Positions 13,501-47,500 of a stretch of 64,000 nt of DNA are shown piece by piece. Every line of letters begins with the position of its first letter. The first letter of the stretch is position 1. Origin of the DNA: Dehalococcoidales bacterium (GTDB lineage Bacteria > Chloroflexota > Dehalococcoidia > Dehalococcoidales > RBG-16-60-22); contig JAQTQH010000002.1 in assembly GCA_028712355.1 (NCBI GenBank), forward strand, positions 5,398 through 69,397, written 5' to 3'. The notes under the pieces were generated by a model that saw only the letters and a program-made list of their open reading frames with translations, searched no databases and was not told the origin of the DNA. The position numbers and the translations under genes were made by a program.

Positions 13501-13692
13501 ATGGTCGTTGAACTGCGCCTCGGCGATGTCGTCCGCCTCAAGAAACTCCACCCCTGCGGCGGCGATAGCTGGGTGGTGGTGCGGCTGGGAGCGGATATCG
13601 GCATCGTTTGTCTCAAGTGCCAGCACCGCATTCTCATCGCCCGCAGCACCCTAGAACGCCGCATCAAAGAGTTCATCACGCGGGGGAAATAA
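13501..13692 (+). CDS. DUF951 family protein
   Basis: 63 aa. LGDVVRLKKLHPCGGDSWVVVRLGADIGIVCLKCQHRILIARSTLERRIK matches the DUF951 pattern. Confidence 0.75.
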   Translation: MVVELRLGDVVRLKKLHPCGGDSWVVVRLGADIGIVCLKCQHRILIARSTLERRIKEFITRGK

Positions 13693-14912
13693 TGGCGCGC
13701 CGCATCATGCTTATTGACCTCGATGCCTTCTTTGTTTCGGTAGAACAGGTGCTTAATCCCGAACTCAAAGGCAAGCCAGTCGTCGTGGGGGGCAAGCCCG
13801 ACCGCCGCGGCGTGGTCGCCGCCGCTTCCTACGAAGCCCGCACCTTCGGTCTGCGCTCCGGAATGCCGCTGGCTACCGCCGTCCGCCTCTGTCCGCAGGC
13901 AATCTTCATCGAGGGTAATTTCCACCGCTACCGGGAGTTTTCCGAAAAGTTCATGGCAATACTCGCCGATTTTTCCCCGTTCCTGGAACCTGCCGGTTTG
14001 GACGAAGCTTACCTGGATGCCACCGGATTCGAATCGCTGCACGGCTCGGCAAGCATGATGGCAAAGAAAATAAAACAGCGTGTCAAAGATGAGCTCGGTC
14101 TGCCGGTTTCCATCGGCATCGCTTCCGGTAAAGTAATTGCCAAGGTCGCCTGTGAACAGTCCAAGCCGGACGGTCTGCTGGAAACAGCCCCCGGCAGCGA
14201 AGGAGATTTTCTCCGTCCCCTGCCGGTGGGCAGGCTGCCCGGCATCGGCAAAAAGAGCGAGGCGGTTTTAAAAGGTCTGGGTATCACTACCATCGGTGAA
14301 CTGGCTAAAGCGCCGGTGAAGTTGCTCGGGCATTACTTCGGCTCTTACGCGACAGTCCTCCACGAACACGCCAGCGGCATCGATGAAAGCCCGGTAACGC
14401 CGCCCGGCCCGGCGAAGTCCATAAGTCGTGAGACGACCTTTGCTAAAGATACCCGCGACCTTACTTTTTTGCTGGCGACACTGCGCTACCTCGCTGAGCA
14501 GGTGGGCAGTGAATTAAGAGAAACCGGTAAGCAAGCCCGCTGTATCAACATCAAGCTCAGGTACGCCGATTTTACCACCATCACCCGCCAGCATACTCTG
14601 GAACAACCCGCCTCCGCCGACCAGACTATTTTTGAAACCGGCGCCAGACTGTTGGAGAAGGAGCTGCGCACTGAAAAACAAAGGGTGCGGCTTATCGGCA
14701 CCGGAGTAAGCAACCTGGTGGAAGGCAGCCAGCAGACCAGCATGCTGGATACCAGGACGCCGCGGCTGGCAAAGCTCAACGCCACCATCGACCGCATCCG
14801 GGAGCGGTACGGTTTTACCGCCATCCAGACCGGGCGTACTTTCCTGTTGAAAGACCTTTTTGAAAAAGACGAAGACGGATATTCCCTGCACACGCCGGGA
14901 CTTTCCGGTTAG
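13692..14912 (+). CDS. dinB: DNA polymerase IV
   Basis: It contains MARRIMLIDLDAFFVSVEQ and SIGIASGKVIAKVA. ATG 13692 overlaps the DUF951 stop as TAATG. The track start at 13608 adds 28 codons inside DUF951. Confidence 0.9.
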   Translation: MARRIMLIDLDAFFVSVEQVLNPELKGKPVVVGGKPDRRGVVAAASYEARTFGLRSGMPLATAVRLCPQAIFIEGNFHRYREFSEKFMAILADFSPFLEPAGLDEAYLDATGFESLHGSASMMAKKIKQRVKDELGLPVSIGIASGKVIAKVACEQSKPDGLLETAPGSEGDFLRPLPVGRLPGIGKKSEAVLKGLGITTIGELAKAPVKLLGHYFGSYATVLHEHASGIDESPVTPPGPAKSISRETTFAKDTRDLTFLLATLRYLAEQVGSELRETGKQARCINIKLRYADFTTITRQHTLEQPASADQTIFETGARLLEKELRTEKQRVRLIGTGVSNLVEGSQQTSMLDTRTPRLAKLNATIDRIRERYGFTAIQTGRTFLLKDLFEKDEDGYSLHTPGLSG

Positions 14913-15519: not shown

Positions 15520-15702
15520 ATGCCTGATATGAAACTGGCGATTACGGCGGTCGAGTATATCATCGGTACCGTTATCGCTATCGCGCTGGGCGATTACCTT
15601 GGCTATAAGATAGGCAGAATGCGTCTGGCGATTATCCTGGGAATCATCGCACTGGCAATCGTTGTACTCTTTACCATCTACGCCGCCGTCGTACTTGCCT
15701 GA
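15520..15702 (+). CDS. hypothetical small membrane protein (2 TM)
   Basis: 60 aa and hydrophobic. An AAGGAG SD lies 6 nt upstream of the ATG. Confidence 0.45.
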   Translation: MPDMKLAITAVEYIIGTVIAIALGDYLGYKIGRMRLAIILGIIALAIVVLFTIYAAVVLA

Positions 15703-15709
15703 TATTGAA

Positions 15710-16501
15710 ATGCAGGGTAAAGCAGTAGTCCTTGCCGTTGATGGCATACGAATTGCCGGTCAGCTTTATTTACCTGTCAGTGATAAGCCTCCGCCCGTAG
15801 TCTGCATCTGTCACGGAATACCATCCGGCAATCCGCCCGATCCGGCGGACGGCGGCTACCCGGCGTTGGCGGAAAAGTTCACCAGCTCCGGCTTCGCCGC
15901 ATTCATCTTTAACTTCCGAGGTTGCCGTAACAGCGGTGGCAACTTCGATATCCTGGGCTGGAGCCGCGACCTTCAGGCTGTACTGGGTTATCTTTACCGG
16001 CAGCCAGAAATCGATAAGACGCACATGGCCTTGCTGGGCTTCAGCGCCGGGGCGGCGGTTTCTGCTTACGTTGCCGCCGGAAACCCTCGCATTTCCTGCG
16101 TCGCGCTATGCGCCGGTCCGGCGGAGTTCAGCTTCCTCAATGATCCGTCCCAGTCCCTCCTCGACCATTTCCGCCGCATCGGCATCATCCGCGACGCTGG
16201 TTTTCCCGTTTCTACCGAGGACTGGGCCGACGGATTTAAAACCGTGACACCCGCCAATCACATCGCCGGGATTGCGCCGCGCCCGCTACTCATCATTCAC
16301 GGTACCAGTGATGATGTCGTAGACATCAGTCATGCGCGGCGACTTTACGCCGCAGCTGGAGAGCCGAAGCAGATGATTATCATCGAAGGCGCCGGGCACC
16401 GTCTGCGGCAGGACGAGCAGGCCATGAAGCTCGTCCTGGATTGGCTCAAATTGCGGCAAAGTACAATCTTCCCTGTATCATTAGGCACTCTCCCCGCTTA
16501 A
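15710..16501 (+). CDS. alpha/beta-fold hydrolase (dienelactone hydrolase / prolyl oligopeptidase-like); 3' end altered by island insertion
   Basis: It contains LLGFSAGAA (nucleophile elbow GxSxG), IIHGTSDDVVD and EGAGHRL. The start is taken at ATG 15710 (MQGKAVVL). The last 3 codons and the stop are supplied by the inserted element. Confidence 0.8.
   Translation: MQGKAVVLAVDGIRIAGQLYLPVSDKPPPVVCICHGIPSGNPPDPADGGYPALAEKFTSSGFAAFIFNFRGCRNSGGNFDILGWSRDLQAVLGYLYRQPEIDKTHMALLGFSAGAAVSAYVAAGNPRISCVALCAGPAEFSFLNDPSQSLLDHFRRIGIIRDAGFPVSTEDWADGFKTVTPANHIAGIAPRPLLIIHGTSDDVVDISHARRLYAAAGEPKQMIIIEGAGHRLRQDEQAMKLVLDWLKLRQSTIFPVSLGTLPA
16481..16491. repeat. left copy of 11-bp direct repeat TTAGGCACTCT
   Basis: The identical 11-mer occurs at 18991-19001. 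The two copies bracket the low-GC island. Confidence 0.8.
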
Positions 16502-17377
16502 TGGTAATTGCTCTGAGGGGTGAAACGGAATTACTTCATGAACACTGGTAACTGTATAATCTGTATCAGTTAAATTGCCATCCCCATCATATTTTTCCTC
16601 AATATCCATAGTTACTCTTAAAGCATCTTGCGGTTGTATATTAAATTCTCTAGCCTGAAATTTTAATAGCCATGATTTATCAGCCATTTTAGCCATGATG
16701 TTTTTATCCCCAAACCTAAACTCCCACATAGATTCCCCTAACAAATCGGGTTTCTTTACCTTAATTATCATTCCCCTTTGTGATTTTATCGTATTAGCAG
16801 TTAATAATTCCTGTAGTTTTTCTGGAGTCAGATTAAACGTTAAATTGAATGATGCTCGCTCTTGAGGGGTTATATAAGAAACTTTGTCCTGTGGTCTTAA
16901 ATATGAGACACCAGAAGATATTTTTTGGATGCTATCTAATAATTGGGTTAGGTCTATCGGGTTGTATATCGGCAGCCATCTGGAATTACTGTTTTTAGCT
17001 TCATTTAATAATTTTTCTCTTAATGGTTGTAATTCTGTAATATTGGTAATAGTCGTTTTCCCATTCAAATAATCTATGATGTAATACTTAGCTTTGACTA
17101 AATATTTACCGACTTGCGGTTTCCAATCAAGATGGTGTAAAGCACTATCGTCAACAGCATTCAAAGCATTACTAAGCCACGTTTTTATTGAACCTGTTTC
17201 TATGTCTTGTAAAATGAGAATGGTCTCAATATTATTATCAATCGATTTAGTCAATGCTTTATCAACACTTTGGAAAGTCTCTATCAGCTCCGTCATTGCC
17301 TTAAAAACTCTCTCAGGATTTGATGTGTTTTTTTCATAGTTTATTTCTAGGCAAAAATCAGCATTCGGCTTGTTCAT
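16481..17377 (-). CDS. hypothetical protein (298 aa), island cargo
   Basis: Long low-GC ORF whose ATG lies 1 nt after the transposase stop. I recognise no Walker A, nuclease or other motif. Its last codons and stop fall inside the left direct repeat. Confidence 0.6.
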   Translation of the reverse strand: MNKPNADFCLEINYEKNTSNPERVFKAMTELIETFQSVDKALTKSIDNNIETILILQDIETGSIKTWLSNALNAVDDSALHHLDWKPQVGKYLVKAKYYIIDYLNGKTTITNITELQPLREKLLNEAKNSNSRWLPIYNPIDLTQLLDSIQKISSGVSYLRPQDKVSYITPQERASFNLTFNLTPEKLQELLTANTIKSQRGMIIKVKKPDLLGESMWEFRFGDKNIMAKMADKSWLLKFQAREFNIQPQDALRVTMDIEEKYDGDGNLTDTDYTVTSVHEVIPFHPSEQLPLSGESA

Positions 17378-17378
17378 T

Positions 17379-18413
17379 TTAGCCCACCTTCTTTAAGGGT
17401 ATCAGGGTAGCATCCATTACAGGCTTACCCTTCTTTACCGATTTACGGCGTGTTAGTCTAACCTGATAGTCTTTATCGGTTTCCCCTTCTGGTATAACAA
17501 TGTCATTCCAGTCTTTACAAGGCACTACCTTGCTTGCCGCTTGTGCTGGCGGGATATTCCCGCAACCTTCATTCTGCTTAAAGAAGTTGTAATTGATTAA
17601 CCAGCCGCTAGTTAAGAGCTTGATTGTCTCCATATCATCGTATTTCTGAAATACCTTAGTCCTTTGTTCCAGTGTCCTATGGAATCGTTCAATCTCTGCT
17701 GTTGATTCCCCGCTTGATACTGTTTTAAATGGGCCGCCCCGCCTGTGTACGGTACGGCAACCGAATTCGTCACCTACACCCATGATGTAGGAATTTAGCT
17801 TGTCAGTTACCACCACTTTCGGGTATCTCCCCGCCTTTATCCTTGCCAAGCGCATTAGTATATGGGCATCCCCGCCACTTCGGGAAAATGACGGGTGCGT
17901 AGCTAGAATGAAGTTAGTCTTGGAATCTATTATGTCCCAGAAATAGACAGTCTTACCTTCTAGCTTCATGTACGTTTCGTCTGCTATCCACGTATCACCT
18001 ATGTTTTCTGGTTTAAACTTCTTAGTCTGAGCAATAGCCTGTTTGGTAAACCGCTTTACCCAGTTCCAATAGTTACTTTCGCTCATATCTAAGTCGTGGT
18101 CTTGTCTGAATTGTTGCTGGATAGCATCAAGGGACATACCGCCATAGTACATACCAAGAGCGGAAGCTATCTGCTTTGATGGTGTTTTCATTTTGGCAAT
18201 CCGAGCGGGTTTTACCGCAATATCCGGAGCGGTCTTAGAAACTACCATTGAAGCACTACCAGAAGCACCAAGACCAGAAGAATGGCGGGTTGACCGACCA
18301 ATGTATCTAATATATTTCTGTATGACCTTGTTACCCTTGTGGATGGTTTCCACTTCGTAGTCATACCAGTTGCCTGAGCGTGGTGGTATTTCTTTAGCTC
18401 GTATGAATGTCAT
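17379..18413 (-). CDS. DDE transposase, IS6/IS240-like catalytic core with N-terminal extension
   Basis: 344 aa. The core reads TWIADETYMKLEGKTVYFWDIID ... KVVVTDKLNSY ... TAEIERFHRTLEQRTK, giving the D, D and E of an IS6-type DDE core. The N-terminus WYDYEVETIHKGNKVIQKYIRYIGR resembles transposase DNA-binding hairpins. Confidence 0.75.
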   Translation of the reverse strand: MTFIRAKEIPPRSGNWYDYEVETIHKGNKVIQKYIRYIGRSTRHSSGLGASGSASMVVSKTAPDIAVKPARIAKMKTPSKQIASALGMYYGGMSLDAIQQQFRQDHDLDMSESNYWNWVKRFTKQAIAQTKKFKPENIGDTWIADETYMKLEGKTVYFWDIIDSKTNFILATHPSFSRSGGDAHILMRLARIKAGRYPKVVVTDKLNSYIMGVGDEFGCRTVHRRGGPFKTVSSGESTAEIERFHRTLEQRTKVFQKYDDMETIKLLTSGWLINYNFFKQNEGCGNIPPAQAASKVVPCKDWNDIVIPEGETDKDYQVRLTRRKSVKKGKPVMDATLIPLKKVG

Positions 18414-18439
18414 TGCTACATCCCCTTCCCAACATTAAT

Positions 18440-18940
18440 TTATAAATTACTACCAATGATTGCACCAATAATGCCACCAATAATTGCACTACCAATCATC
18501 AAAAATAGATTCCCCCCAAATTCGTCTTTATCCTTGATGGTGAACTCTGTAACGTCAAAAAATGAGCTTGCTTTATCGCCATCTGTAAGTCTCATCTGCA
18601 ATTTGTATTGATTTTTCTTTAGCCTTCCAATATCAATAGCTTTACTCTTAAATTTCAGAACCCATAGTCTGTGAAGCTTTATCTCCCCCGCACCATACTT
18701 ATTTGAAACCTGCTCATCTGTCTCACTATTAACTAAACGCCACTCATAGCCTAATGTTTTCTTGGTTAGCAAGGTATTACGCCGTATCATTAGTTCATAA
18801 CTTATATATGTGGAATAGAAAAATGGGATGATGTCTGTTTGGTAAAAGAATGAGTACATCTTGCTTAATAAATGTGTTAGTCCTTCACAATTGACCTGAA
18901 CGGCATAGTCTCCCCATTTGATAGGATAATAAGTAGCCAT
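18440..18940 (-). CDS. hypothetical tail-anchored membrane protein (166 aa) with C-terminal glycine zipper, island cargo
   Basis: There is no signal peptide. The C-terminus FLMIGSAIIGGIIGAIIGSNL is a single GxxxG-rich TM. An SD (AAGGGGGA) lies upstream of the ATG. Confidence 0.55.
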   Translation of the reverse strand: MATYYPIKWGDYAVQVNCEGLTHLLSKMYSFFYQTDIIPFFYSTYISYELMIRRNTLLTKKTLGYEWRLVNSETDEQVSNKYGAGEIKLHRLWVLKFKSKAIDIGRLKKNQYKLQMRLTDGDKASSFFDVTEFTIKDKDEFGGNLFLMIGSAIIGGIIGAIIGSNL

Positions 18941-18979
18941 GCCAATCCCCCTTAACCAATTATTTAGCTTGTTAAGAGG

Positions 18980-19008
18980 ATTATACCTACTTAGGCACTC
19001 TTTGGCAA
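18980..19008 (-). promoter_or_regulatory. putative junction promoter reading into the island operon
   Basis: On the minus strand: TTGCCA (19008-19003, outside the repeat), a 17-nt spacer spanning the right direct repeat, then TATAAT (18985-18980, inside the element). Confidence 0.45.
18991..19001. repeat. right copy of 11-bp direct repeat TTAGGCACTCT
   Basis: Identical to 16481-16491. Confidence 0.8.
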
Positions 19009-19036
19009 GAGTGAACTTTGCCCAAATTGCACTGCG

Positions 19037-19066
19037 TTGACCAGTTGGGAACGCATAAGCTATAAT
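19037..19066 (+). promoter_or_regulatory. putative purF promoter
   Basis: TTGACC (19037-19042), an 18-nt spacer, then TATAAT (19061-19066). Confidence 0.45.
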
Positions 19067-19109: not shown

Positions 19110-20531
19110 TTGCACGAATCTTGTGCAGTATTTGGTGTTTATGCCCCAAATGAAGATGTAGCCCGGCTCACCTTCTTCGGACTATTTGCCCTGCAGCACC
19201 GCGGTCAGGAAAGCTCAGGCATAGCTACTGCTGACGGTAAGAAAATCAACCTCTTCGCTGGCATGGGGCGTGTTTCCAGCGTCTTCAGCGAAGAATCGCT
19301 GAGCCGGCTGACCGGCCACATCGCTATCGGGCACAACCGCTATTCCACCGCCGGTTCCAGCCGTATCAGCAATGCCCAGCCCATTGTCGTCGGCGCGGAT
19401 GATAACGCCATTGCTATCGCCCACAACGGAAACATCATCAACGCCCGCTACCTCCGCGAGGAACTTTCCGGGCAGGGTTACGTCTTTAAAACCACCACCG
19501 ATACCGAGGTGATTGCCAACCTGATACTGTCTTCCCCCGAAAAGGACTGCGTCGGCAAGATTCAATATGCCATGCGCCGTATCCAAGGCGCCTATTCCCT
19601 GGTGCTGATGACGAAAGACCGGCTCTTTGCCGTGCGCGATCCCTTCGGCGTGCGGCCGCTGTGTCTGGGCAAGGTTGATGGCGGATATGTCGTCTCTTCC
19701 GAAAGCTGTGCCCTCGACCATATCGGCGCAGATTTTATCCGCGAAATCACGCATGGTGAGATTGTCGCTATCGGCACCAACGGTATTGAAAGCCACCGTA
19801 TTGAATCACCACGGCAGGGTCTGTGCATTTTTGAATTTATCTACTTCGCCCGCCCGGACAGCGTGATTAACGGCCGTCTGCTTTATCCCGCCCGCCAGGC
19901 AATGGGCGCTACATTAGCCCAGGAACATCCGGTGGCGGCAGACATCGTCATGGGCGTGCCGGACTCGGCGACTGCCGCCGGAATCGGCTATGCCCATGAA
20001 TCTGGTATTCCTATCGCCGAGGGGCTTATCAAGAACCGCTACGTGGGGCGTACCTTTATTGAGCCAGACCAACGCCTGCGCGACCTGGGCGTTAAGCTGA
20101 AATTCAATCCCCTCCCGCAGATGCTGGACGGTAAGCGGTTGGTGGTCGTCGATGACAGCATTGTGCGCGGCACGACGACACCCAGTGTCGTCCGCATCCT
20201 GAAAAAAGCAGGGGCGAAGGAAATACATATGCGTATCTGTGCGCCGCCCATCCGCTACCCGTGCTTCTTCGGAGTGGATATGGCAACCCGCCGTGAACTG
20301 ATTGCCGCGCAGAAAAGCGTCGAGGAAATCCGACAGTTCATCGGTGCCGATTCCTTAGGTTATATCAGCATCCCGGGGCTGATTAAGTCAGTGGGACTAC
20401 CTCAGGATATTTTCTGCCTGGCGTGCTTCACCGGGGATTATCCCATCCCCGTCCAGCTCGAGATGGACAAGCTGGAGATGGAAAATCACACCGAAAGTGA
20501 AGGCAAGTGCATCACGACGGTCGAGTCCTAA
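19110..20531 (+). CDS. purF: amidophosphoribosyltransferase
   Basis: 473 aa with a TTG start. It has a short propeptide followed by CAVFGVY (the Ntn Cys), and VVVDDSIVRGTT (PRPP loop). Confidence 0.92.
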   Translation: MHESCAVFGVYAPNEDVARLTFFGLFALQHRGQESSGIATADGKKINLFAGMGRVSSVFSEESLSRLTGHIAIGHNRYSTAGSSRISNAQPIVVGADDNAIAIAHNGNIINARYLREELSGQGYVFKTTTDTEVIANLILSSPEKDCVGKIQYAMRRIQGAYSLVLMTKDRLFAVRDPFGVRPLCLGKVDGGYVVSSESCALDHIGADFIREITHGEIVAIGTNGIESHRIESPRQGLCIFEFIYFARPDSVINGRLLYPARQAMGATLAQEHPVAADIVMGVPDSATAAGIGYAHESGIPIAEGLIKNRYVGRTFIEPDQRLRDLGVKLKFNPLPQMLDGKRLVVVDDSIVRGTTTPSVVRILKKAGAKEIHMRICAPPIRYPCFFGVDMATRRELIAAQKSVEEIRQFIGADSLGYISIPGLIKSVGLPQDIFCLACFTGDYPIPVQLEMDKLEMENHTESEGKCITTVES

Positions 20532-21863: not shown

Positions 21864-22505
21864 ATGAAGACAGTATCTACCAAGCAGCAGCAAATCCTCG
21901 GTTTTATCCGCCGTTTTCTGGCGGAGCAGGACTATCCGCCCTCGTTGCGGGACATTCAGGAAGGCTGCCACATTAGTTCGACGTCTGTCGTCGATTATAA
22001 CCTCAAAGCACTGGAGAGGCTCGGCTTCATCCGCCGCCATCCTGAAATATCGCGCGGAATCGTCCTGAACTCCGATTCCACGATTCCTTTATCTATGACG
22101 CCCGTTCCTATCATCGGCATGATTGCCGCAGGTTCACCGATTCCCGTTCCCACACCCGATACTTGGGACGTTTCCGCCGCAGCGGAGACCATCAACATCA
22201 GCCGCGAATTGACCGGAGATGCCGAGGGAATCTACGCTCTCAAGGTCAAGGGTGAATCCATGATAGATGCCCTGATTAACGACGGCGATATCGTCCTGAT
22301 GCAATACACTAATACCGCAGACAACGGCGATATGGTTGCCGCCTGGCTAAAAGCGGAAAAAGAAGCAACGCTCAAGAAAGTATATATTGAATCCGACCGT
22401 GTCCGCCTGCAACCGGCTAACCGCCATATGCAGCCCATTTATGTCTCCCCGGACAACCTTGAAATCCAGGGCAAAGTCATCGGCGTCATCCGAAAATTAT
22501 CCTGA
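21864..22505 (+). CDS. lexA: LexA repressor
   Basis: 213 aa. It has an N-terminal winged-helix region (PPSLRDIQEGCHISSTSVVDYNLKALE), the GESMIDALINDGDIVLMQ Ser nucleophile region and a TLKKV Lys. Confidence 0.92.
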   Translation: MKTVSTKQQQILGFIRRFLAEQDYPPSLRDIQEGCHISSTSVVDYNLKALERLGFIRRHPEISRGIVLNSDSTIPLSMTPVPIIGMIAAGSPIPVPTPDTWDVSAAAETINISRELTGDAEGIYALKVKGESMIDALINDGDIVLMQYTNTADNGDMVAAWLKAEKEATLKKVYIESDRVRLQPANRHMQPIYVSPDNLEIQGKVIGVIRKLS

Positions 22506-47008: not shown

Positions 47009-47500
47009 ATGCAGCCAAGAATTGAAGCTGTACAAGAAAAGAAACTAGTTGGGAAATGCCTTAAAATGTCTTTTTCTAAAAACAGAACTATGGAATTATG
47101 GCGAAGTTTTGCGCCGCGTATCAAAGAGATAAAGAATAGCGCAGATTCAGATTTATACTCTGTTGAAGTTTATGAATCGGGATTTTTTGATAATTTTATT
47201 CCTGAAAGAGAATTTGATAGATGGGCGGCTATTGAAGTAACAGACTTCAATGAAATTCCTGATGAAATGGAAAACATTACCTTACCGGGTGGGCTTTATG
47301 CTGTCTTTATATATATAGGACCTGCCAGCGCAGCATCAATAATCTATCAGGCTATTTTGGGAACATGGTTGCCAAAATCCGAATTCTTATTGGATAACCG
47401 GCCTCATTTTGCCTTGATGGGAACAGAATATAAAGGGGAAGACCCGGGTTCTGAAGAAGAAATTTGGATACCCATAAAACGGAAAATTAATAACAAATAA
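47009..47500 (+). CDS. GyrI-like small-molecule-binding domain protein (AraC effector-binding fold)
   Basis: 163 aa with KLVGKCLKMSF ... LPGGLYAVFIYIGP ... EIWIPI. The gene is low-GC and sits in an AT-rich stretch. Confidence 0.65.
   Translation: MQPRIEAVQEKKLVGKCLKMSFSKNRTMELWRSFAPRIKEIKNSADSDLYSVEVYESGFFDNFIPEREFDRWAAIEVTDFNEIPDEMENITLPGGLYAVFIYIGPASAASIIYQAILGTWLPKSEFLLDNRPHFALMGTEYKGEDPGSEEEIWIPIKRKINNK

Follow-up and report, generated by a model that had tools for sequence, protein, structure and literature searches.

How should a transposase gene be understood when it is the middle one of three tightly spaced genes, given that the IS6 family to which it appears to belong is described as homogeneous, with insertion sequences (IS) of 700-890 bp, one open reading frame (ORF), a transposase of 213-254 amino acids (aa) and 8-bp repeats (PMC7986276)? 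Such a locus lies in a 64,000-nucleotide (nt) stretch of Dehalococcoidales bacterium DNA (assembly GCA_028712355.1, contig JAQTQH010000002.1, positions 5,398 to 69,397), referred to here as the window, whose numbering is used throughout unless another locus is named. This raises the question as to whether the three proteins form one machine or whether the transposase carries its neighbors as cargo. A first-pass annotation, made from the letters of the window and their translated ORFs, had described three minus-strand ORFs separated by gaps of 26 nt (166-aa gene to transposase) and 1 nt (transposase to 298-aa gene), and this gene row is indeed present:

18440..18940, minus strand: upstream passenger gene, 166-aa β-sandwich with a C-terminal membrane anchor (119-representative family, AlphaFold (AF2) model, immunoglobulin (Ig)-like fold matches)
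17379..18413, minus strand: IS6-like DDE transposase, 344 aa, with a cysteine-free N-terminal extension (PF13610, NF033587, alignment with IS26 TnpA)
16481..17377, minus strand: downstream passenger gene, 298-aa LAPAL-family / PDC-S42-like protein (NF053583, PDC-S42, phrog_27740, phrog_3243, AF2 model)

The reading that we favor, to which we give a probability of roughly three in four, is that the locus is one intact IS6-related passenger-carrying element and that both flanking genes are independent cargo. We take the element for an uncommon form of an already known transposon family and not for a new three-protein machine.

The evidence starts at the boundaries. The whole trio is a single transposable element of 2,568 bp (window 16455-19022); the three-gene block is a compositional island (39.3% GC vs 53.5% in the remaining window), and an imperfect inverted repeat encloses all three genes, reaching beyond the transposase alone. 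The ends, set by alignment with the ends of two related loci, read GGCAAAGT... at 16455 and 19022 and are identical in 16 of their first 19 nt; both have the form GGCAAAGTWCAMTCTT, start with GG as the short (~14 bp) terminal inverted repeats of IS6 do, and are conserved clade-wide. Directly outside them, CAAATTGC forms a perfect 8-bp direct repeat at 16447-16454 and 19023-19030, which is the duplication length of IS6; the chance probability of one such 8-mer match is 1.5e-5. Repeats and duplication enclose both flanking genes, the arrangement seen for passengers in a passenger-carrying IS (tIS), and no second copy of the terminal motif occurs elsewhere in the window. The insertion point is in the last codons, at the 3' end, of an α/β-hydrolase-like ORF upstream of purF, and removal in silico of the element with one copy of the duplication restores a 275-aa hydrolase ORF with a different C-terminal tail. 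The span proposed earlier (16481-18940) was thus correct for the genes but stopped just short of the element ends and the target duplication, which are as follows:

16447..16454: target-site duplication next to the right end (CAAATTGC; identical 8-mer at 19023-19030)
16455..19022, minus strand: complete IS6-like passenger-carrying element, 2,568 bp, 39% GC (termini common to 34 complete related elements)
16455..16473, minus strand: right terminal inverted repeat, IRR (repeat search, end alignment, family comparison)
16481..16491, minus strand: right sub-terminal motif AGAGTGCCTAA, encoding the final codons and stop (..ESA, then stop) of the 298-aa gene
18991..19001, minus strand: left sub-terminal motif AGAGTGCCTAA, family-conserved, able to pair with CACTCT of the left repeat
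19004..19022, minus strand: left terminal inverted repeat, IRL, GGCAAAGTTCACTCTTGCC (repeat search, end alignment, family comparison)
19023..19030: target-site duplication next to the left end (CAAATTGC; identical 8-mer at 16447-16454)
15662..16501, plus strand: host α/β-hydrolase-like ORF, its 3' end hit by the insertion (275-aa ORF on removal of the element)

A separate promoter-like site, TTGACC-18 nt-TATAAT at window 19037-19066, lies just beyond the left end and upstream of purF (19110-20531); with 7 bp between the insertion and the -35 box of this site, expression of purF might be altered.

Does this architecture extend beyond the window? About 100 loci encoding relatives of the transposase (numbered L001 onwards) were fetched out of more than 630 homologues, short contigs limiting the survey, and elements were delimited by their terminal motif. 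Among these loci, 34 distinct complete elements of 1,664-3,558 bp have the same termini, and perfect 8-bp duplications flank 25 of them, or 24 of 33 if the common duplication of L019 and L039 reflects one and the same insertion; of the remaining elements, two are at contig edges and three have duplications with one or two mismatches. The simple organization of IS6, one ORF in 0.7-0.9 kb, is found neither in the window, with its 2,568 bp and three genes, nor in the relatives, which all have at least two genes: in every one of the 34 elements, the stretch from left repeat to transposase contains one or more ORFs of 107-320 aa, and the smallest form (L002, 1,664 bp) consists of passenger and transposase. 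The right end is invariant (34/34), with AGAGTGCCTAA, about 10 nt and the right repeat, and the last gene, whichever it is, draws its final codons and stop from AGAGTGCCTAA; the same ...ESA terminus is accordingly read in the transposase of L002, the methylase of L012 and the 298-aa protein of the window. At the left end, a TATAAT/TATACT box directly follows the repeat in nearly all elements, and AGAGTGCCTAA is mostly in direct orientation, able to form a hairpin with CACTCT of the repeat.

Two variations on this plan were seen. Within the first ~40 nt of L008, L011, L015, L043, L052 and L069, the left motif is flipped to TTAGGCACTCT, which yields a true inverted repeat of ~36 nt. Three other loci are decayed elements (L024 4014-5192, L025 4117-5147 and L026 2003-2854), in which an intact membrane passenger of 302, 265 and 206 aa, respectively, is followed by a 63-76-aa transposase stub that comprises N-terminal residues only (40-76 of them), with no DDE remnant and no right repeat; L024 and L025 still show a left repeat, and none was found in L026. 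Either such loci lose the transposase and keep its passenger, or the N-terminal domain by itself has some function, perhaps a regulatory one.

As for the IS6 likeness of the transposase, the motifs read earlier, ADETY (D145), VTDK (D204) and AEIERFH (from residue 239), are all present. It matches PF13610 DDE_Tnp_IS240 with 50 bits, above the cutoff of 27, and the NCBIfam IS6 model NF033587 over the whole profile with E=3e-29, its 102 bits being under the curated cutoff of 125. BLASTP aligns it with IS26 TnpA across DETY and TDK with E=6e-8; this alignment is taken as supportive only. Residues 1 to ~70 form a cysteine-free extension, the first cysteine is residue 219, and there is no CxxC zinc finger. 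At least 630 homologues exist, mostly in Chloroflexota; the best 120 of them are 64-91% identical and ~340-350 aa long, and those that are named belong to Chloroflexota/Dehalococcoidia. A PDB sequence-profile search with the transposase gave no match.

The 166-aa protein could be a dedicated accessory factor or regulator of the transposase, one that tethers it to the membrane, steers target choice or inhibits it, for example. Its gene is always immediately upstream, with a gap of 26 nt, and its family adjoins the transposase in the window, L001, L002, L007, L033 and L064; a distant member, P0247, even lies 3 nt upstream of a transposase that is only 47% identical and has different repeats (L115), suggesting a long association, and some upstream protein with a predicted membrane segment (crude hydropathy test) is present in 33 of the 34 elements. 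Yet among relatives of the transposase at 65-96% identity, that place is taken by about 18 unrelated proteins, and fresh 8-bp duplications are seen all the same; P0250 (L116 4001-4740), a family member of 206 aa, has no adjacent transposase; and canonical IS6 elements need the transposase alone (PMC7986276). A role as accessory factor is therefore unlikely.

The turnover of the upstream slot is indeed extensive. Its ORFs fall into ~18 groups with no BLAST link between them and a single HHalign link, that of cluster 0 with L056_UP_126 (93% probability), and the profile of the 166-aa family detects its own upstream cluster only. Because HHalign linked one cluster pair only, the idea of one diverged accessory family was rejected. 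Passenger type does not follow the transposase tree: among transposase pairs at least 90% identical, 8 of 10 carry different upstream passengers, and the closest relative of the window transposase (L117, 91%) differs from the window in both slots. As for the identity of these membrane passengers, searches of Pfam, NCBIfam and PADLOC gave no credible assignment, and weak sub-cutoff Pfam matches (MFS_1, holin-like, DUF4271 and similar) were treated as noise from hydrophobic segments. Because elements with ~18 unrelated upstream proteins show target duplications throughout, the flanking genes are unlikely to be the transposition accessory or target-selection factors that had been proposed; the 166-aa protein belongs to one of ~18 interchangeable families and would therefore be cargo, outside the transposition machinery.

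What kind of cargo is it? A word-indexed search returned two relatives of the 166-aa protein only, both directly upstream of an IS240-type transposase. An exhaustive HMMER search returned 119 family representatives at E<=1e-3, 40 of them at E<=1e-10, so the protein, first taken for an orphan, belongs to a newly defined family of tail-anchored β-sandwich proteins. It has no match in Pfam, PADLOC or PHROG and only a negligible one in NCBIfam (ssl2009, E=0.33, 11.7 bits against a cutoff of 58). The AF2 model, of moderate confidence (pLDDT 68), consists of a β-sandwich followed by one long helix, and Foldseek relates it to generic Ig-like folds (RhoGDI, FN3, adhesin repeats; best E=3.8e-4, TM-score ~0.45). 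The C-terminal tail FLMIGSAIIGGIIGAIIGSNL on which the first reading had relied is present and contains GGIIGAIIGS; a hydrophobic C-terminal segment is retained in 108 of 116 representatives, many of which keep the anchor without a regular zipper, and it is preceded by a conserved FTIKDKDE(F/Y) in the closest relatives and by a looser motif (KDRD...) in distant ones. With an Ig-like β-sandwich on a single C-terminal helix in the model, and an anchor that in the relatives is often no GxxxG zipper, the reading as a pore-forming toxin is not supported and was set aside on structural grounds. The β-sandwich probably faces the cytoplasm, because the protein combines the lack of a signal peptide with a terminal anchor. 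In L116, a right-end-like terminus (...GGTACTTTGCC) was noticed ~110 bp downstream of P0250, and this locus may be a transposase-less derivative.

The other slot, downstream of the transposase, is vacant in most elements, where 26-53 bp separate the transposase from the right repeat. In the loci that share the 166-aa family it is empty or holds other genes. The passengers found there are the following:

Window: LAPAL / PDC-S42 protein, 298 aa
L001: HEPN_AbiU2, 209 aa
L008 and L012: N6/N4 DNA methyltransferases, 483 and 415 aa
L018 and L019: small transmembrane (TM) proteins, 80-93 aa
L117 (1263-1571): 102-aa protein of unknown family

The 102-aa passenger of L117, which has no Pfam match, is joined in the same manner as that of the window: transposase stop, 3 nt, ATG ... 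TGAGAGTGCCTAA, right repeat.

The 298-aa protein had likewise been called an orphan, a label that does not survive comparison: it scores 100.2 bits against NCBIfam NF053583 LAPAL_fam (cutoff 60), its residues 30-284 covering profile positions 23-292 of 292, and has more than 148 homologues with conserved columns. The PADLOC check that had been recommended divides the flanking proteins, the 166-aa protein finding no match and the 298-aa protein matching the PDC-S42 models (E=4.8e-7 and 2.5e-4), over its last ~100 residues only. PADLOC PDCs were chosen for their embedding in BREX, DISARM or type I restriction-modification (RM) systems and are candidates only; literature searches for 'PDC-S42' and 'LAPAL motif' found no papers. 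The AF2 model (pLDDT 90) has two halves, the N-terminal one helical with a β-hairpin sheet and the C-terminal one rich in β-strands. PDB sequence and fold searches gave no significant match; the weak fold matches that recur are to OB folds (anticodon-binding domains of tRNA synthetases, Mpa, ExoVII, SSB) and serve as a lead only.

Could this protein instead be a structural component of a phage, in a locus that stems from a prophage remnant which the IS has captured? The NCBIfam family name points that way, the protein matches phrog_27740 and phrog_3243, both of unknown function, and its model resembles uncharacterized phage or prophage proteins in BFVD, including a DUF6575 protein (E=4e-9 to 6e-6). 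The phage proteins that match are, however, not annotated as structural, PDB yields nothing beyond the weak OB-fold matches, and none of the nine homologue contexts contains a capsid, tail, portal or terminase gene, their neighbors being RM systems, NTPases, integrases and housekeeping genes. The structural reading was rejected on these grounds of context and appears quite improbable. In all nine contexts the gene is solo and never accompanied by this transposase: in L003-L005 it directly follows type I-like N6_Mtase/Methylase_S genes, beside a PLD nuclease or an nSTAND NTPase; in L109 it comes after a HaeIII endonuclease, with a Dam methylase; and further settings are small integrase/Prim-Pol elements and a single insertion among housekeeping genes. 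The homologues thus share the defense-system neighborhood by which PDCs were chosen, whereas the window copy sits in an IS, outside any defense island. The most likely role of the protein, whose C-terminal half is OB-like, is that of a single-gene factor against phages or other invaders. In L056, a core LAPAL gene (211 bits) without BLAST similarity to the window protein occupies the upstream slot; with the downstream slot of the window, this means that the clade has captured the LAPAL superfamily at least twice. The two independent captures lend circumstantial support to a predicted adaptive, possibly antiviral, role.

Taken together, the two slots bear on whether the trio could be one functional system, for example a membrane toxin and a partner that require the transposase. 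Tight, operon-like spacing and one promoter-like site would suit such a system, but the window is the only place with this trio, the two flanking genes change independently of one another, and homologues of the 298-aa protein stand alone in many contexts; we consider it extremely improbable. The first-pass annotation had itself named a lack of conservation of the trio as the finding that would speak against its module, and co-occurrence in the surveyed loci shows that the exact trio recurs nowhere else. Nor are the flanking genes a pair, as they fill two cargo slots that vary separately. Its alternative suggestion, that passenger or defense genes travel along with the transposase, is in keeping with the downstream gene.

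It might also be argued that the flanking ORFs are decaying or non-functional passengers without a selected role, as the upstream slot turns over fast and functions are predicted only. This is very unlikely: both proteins belong to broad families with invariant columns and conserved architecture, the model of the 298-aa protein is confident, and the three loci with a stub transposase have kept their passengers intact.

As far as expression is concerned, a Shine-Dalgarno-like purine-rich stretch (GGAGG/GGGGA) precedes each of the three starts, and the left end contains the following site:

18980..19008, minus strand: promoter-like site TTGCCA-17 nt-TATAAT (11/12), with a TATAAT/TATACT box at the same place in nearly all family left ends

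The promoter scan as a whole is not enriched over shuffles (5 found vs 7.1 expected), and the weight of this site therefore comes from its position and family-wide conservation alone. No minus-strand terminator-like site was found within the element. The three genes are probably all transcribed from the left-end promoter. The earlier view of one mobile, co-oriented three-gene unit is thereby upheld, with repeats and an 8-bp duplication that bracket all three genes, a single strong promoter-like site, located in the left end, and no terminator-like site inside.

Several points weigh against reading the locus as an IS6-related element with independent cargo. The transposase falls short of the NF033587 cutoff and has an N-terminal extension without a zinc finger, and the element is 2-4 times the canonical IS6 length. 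The persistence of the 166-aa family beside the transposase of L115, for all its divergence and different repeats, could mean a tie closer than that of cargo. The 166-aa model was built from a 3-sequence alignment, the TM predictions come from a crude hydropathy window, and the survey covers ~100 loci. For the 298-aa protein, the PDC-S42 match is confined to the C-terminal ~100 residues, PDCs are themselves predictions, and the NCBIfam family is named 'putative phage structural protein'. Finally, the sequences show the element boundaries, the duplication, the family-wide architecture, the cargo turnover, the family assignments and the genomic contexts, and from them we infer the transposition pathway, co-transcription, membrane topology and any defense role or other phenotype.

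In the favored reading, the clade, which is found in Dehalococcoidia, has a basic unit that runs from a left inverted repeat with promoter through passenger and transposase to a right inverted repeat, and the window copy has one more passenger, placed after the transposase stop and before the conserved motif of the right end. The entire 2,568-bp unit moved in one piece, which by analogy with IS6/IS26 would be through a replicative cointegrate and its resolution, leaving the 8-bp duplication. The 166-aa protein, one of ~18 interchangeable and mostly membrane-anchored upstream passengers, would be an Ig-like β-sandwich held at the membrane by its C-terminal helix and facing the cytoplasm, and the 298-aa gene would be a stand-alone gene of the LAPAL / PDC-S42 family, acquired separately.

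A more speculative extension, which we hold to be doubtful, is that the clade is a dedicated cargo shuttle, with a mandatory, fast-exchanged cassette slot for membrane proteins and a second slot collecting stand-alone defense genes. The membrane passengers would then possibly be phage-exclusion or envelope-modifying factors, and exchange might take place at the conserved sub-terminal AGAGTGCCTAA motifs. If true, the clade would represent a hitherto undescribed, minimal vehicle by which immune genes spread within a lineage that lacks cultured members.

Elsewhere in the window, a second low-GC patch (~40%) at 47009-47500 contains a 163-aa ORF beside an NAD-dependent epimerase-like gene; no terminal-repeat motif was found there. 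Judged from translations, a DinB-like (DNA polymerase IV) gene (13608-14912) and a LexA-like repressor gene (21864-22505) flank the region of the element within ~5 kb.

In terms of nomenclature, the window element is best called an IS6-related passenger-carrying IS (tIS). It shares with canonical IS6/IS26 an alignable DDE transposase (DETY, TDK), short GG-initiated repeats, the 8-bp duplication and a left-end promoter; it differs in that the clade measures 1.7-3.6 kb instead of 0.7-0.9 kb, has two to four genes instead of one and encodes, in the window, a transposase of 344 aa instead of 213-254 aa that scores under the NCBIfam cutoff. N-terminal extensions are also found in IS6 clades h and i, where they carry a zinc finger, in contrast to the extension of the window transposase with no CxxC. 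The 298-aa protein resembles PDC-S42 / LAPAL_fam in scoring above the LAPAL_fam cutoff, in matching both PDC-S42 models over its C-terminal ~100 residues and in having its closest homologues after type I-like RM genes, but represents a divergent branch (100 vs 211 bits for L056) in which the literal LAPAL string is absent and which rides in an IS. Small stand-alone defense genes travel as mobile-element cargo elsewhere, in integron cassettes and Tn7-like elements. The likeness lies in the mobilization of HEPN_AbiU2, a DNA methyltransferase and a PDC in a variable slot; here, the carrier is a minimal IS6-like element in which no integrase or attC-type site was identified. The closest precedent is ISDsp3 of Dehalococcoides sp. 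BAV1, the only IS6 member known with a passenger gene, annotated as hypothetical (PMC7986276). It belongs to the IS6 family, carries a passenger and has a host in the same class as the window genome, and the window element, compared with ISDsp3 by description only, is probably of its type; ISDsp3 is, however, described as a single copy with one passenger, as against a clade of 34 delimited elements with an always-occupied, hypervariable slot and an optional second one. A passenger in every delimited element, with Abi, methyltransferase or candidate defense genes in some, would change the picture of IS6 as a homogeneous single-gene family (PMC7986276) and would offer a simple natural system for how the smallest transposons gain and swap cargo. 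The new part, by comparison with all these systems, is the pattern at the level of the clade: an always-occupied, rapidly exchanged slot for membrane proteins and an optional slot for defense genes within a minimal IS.

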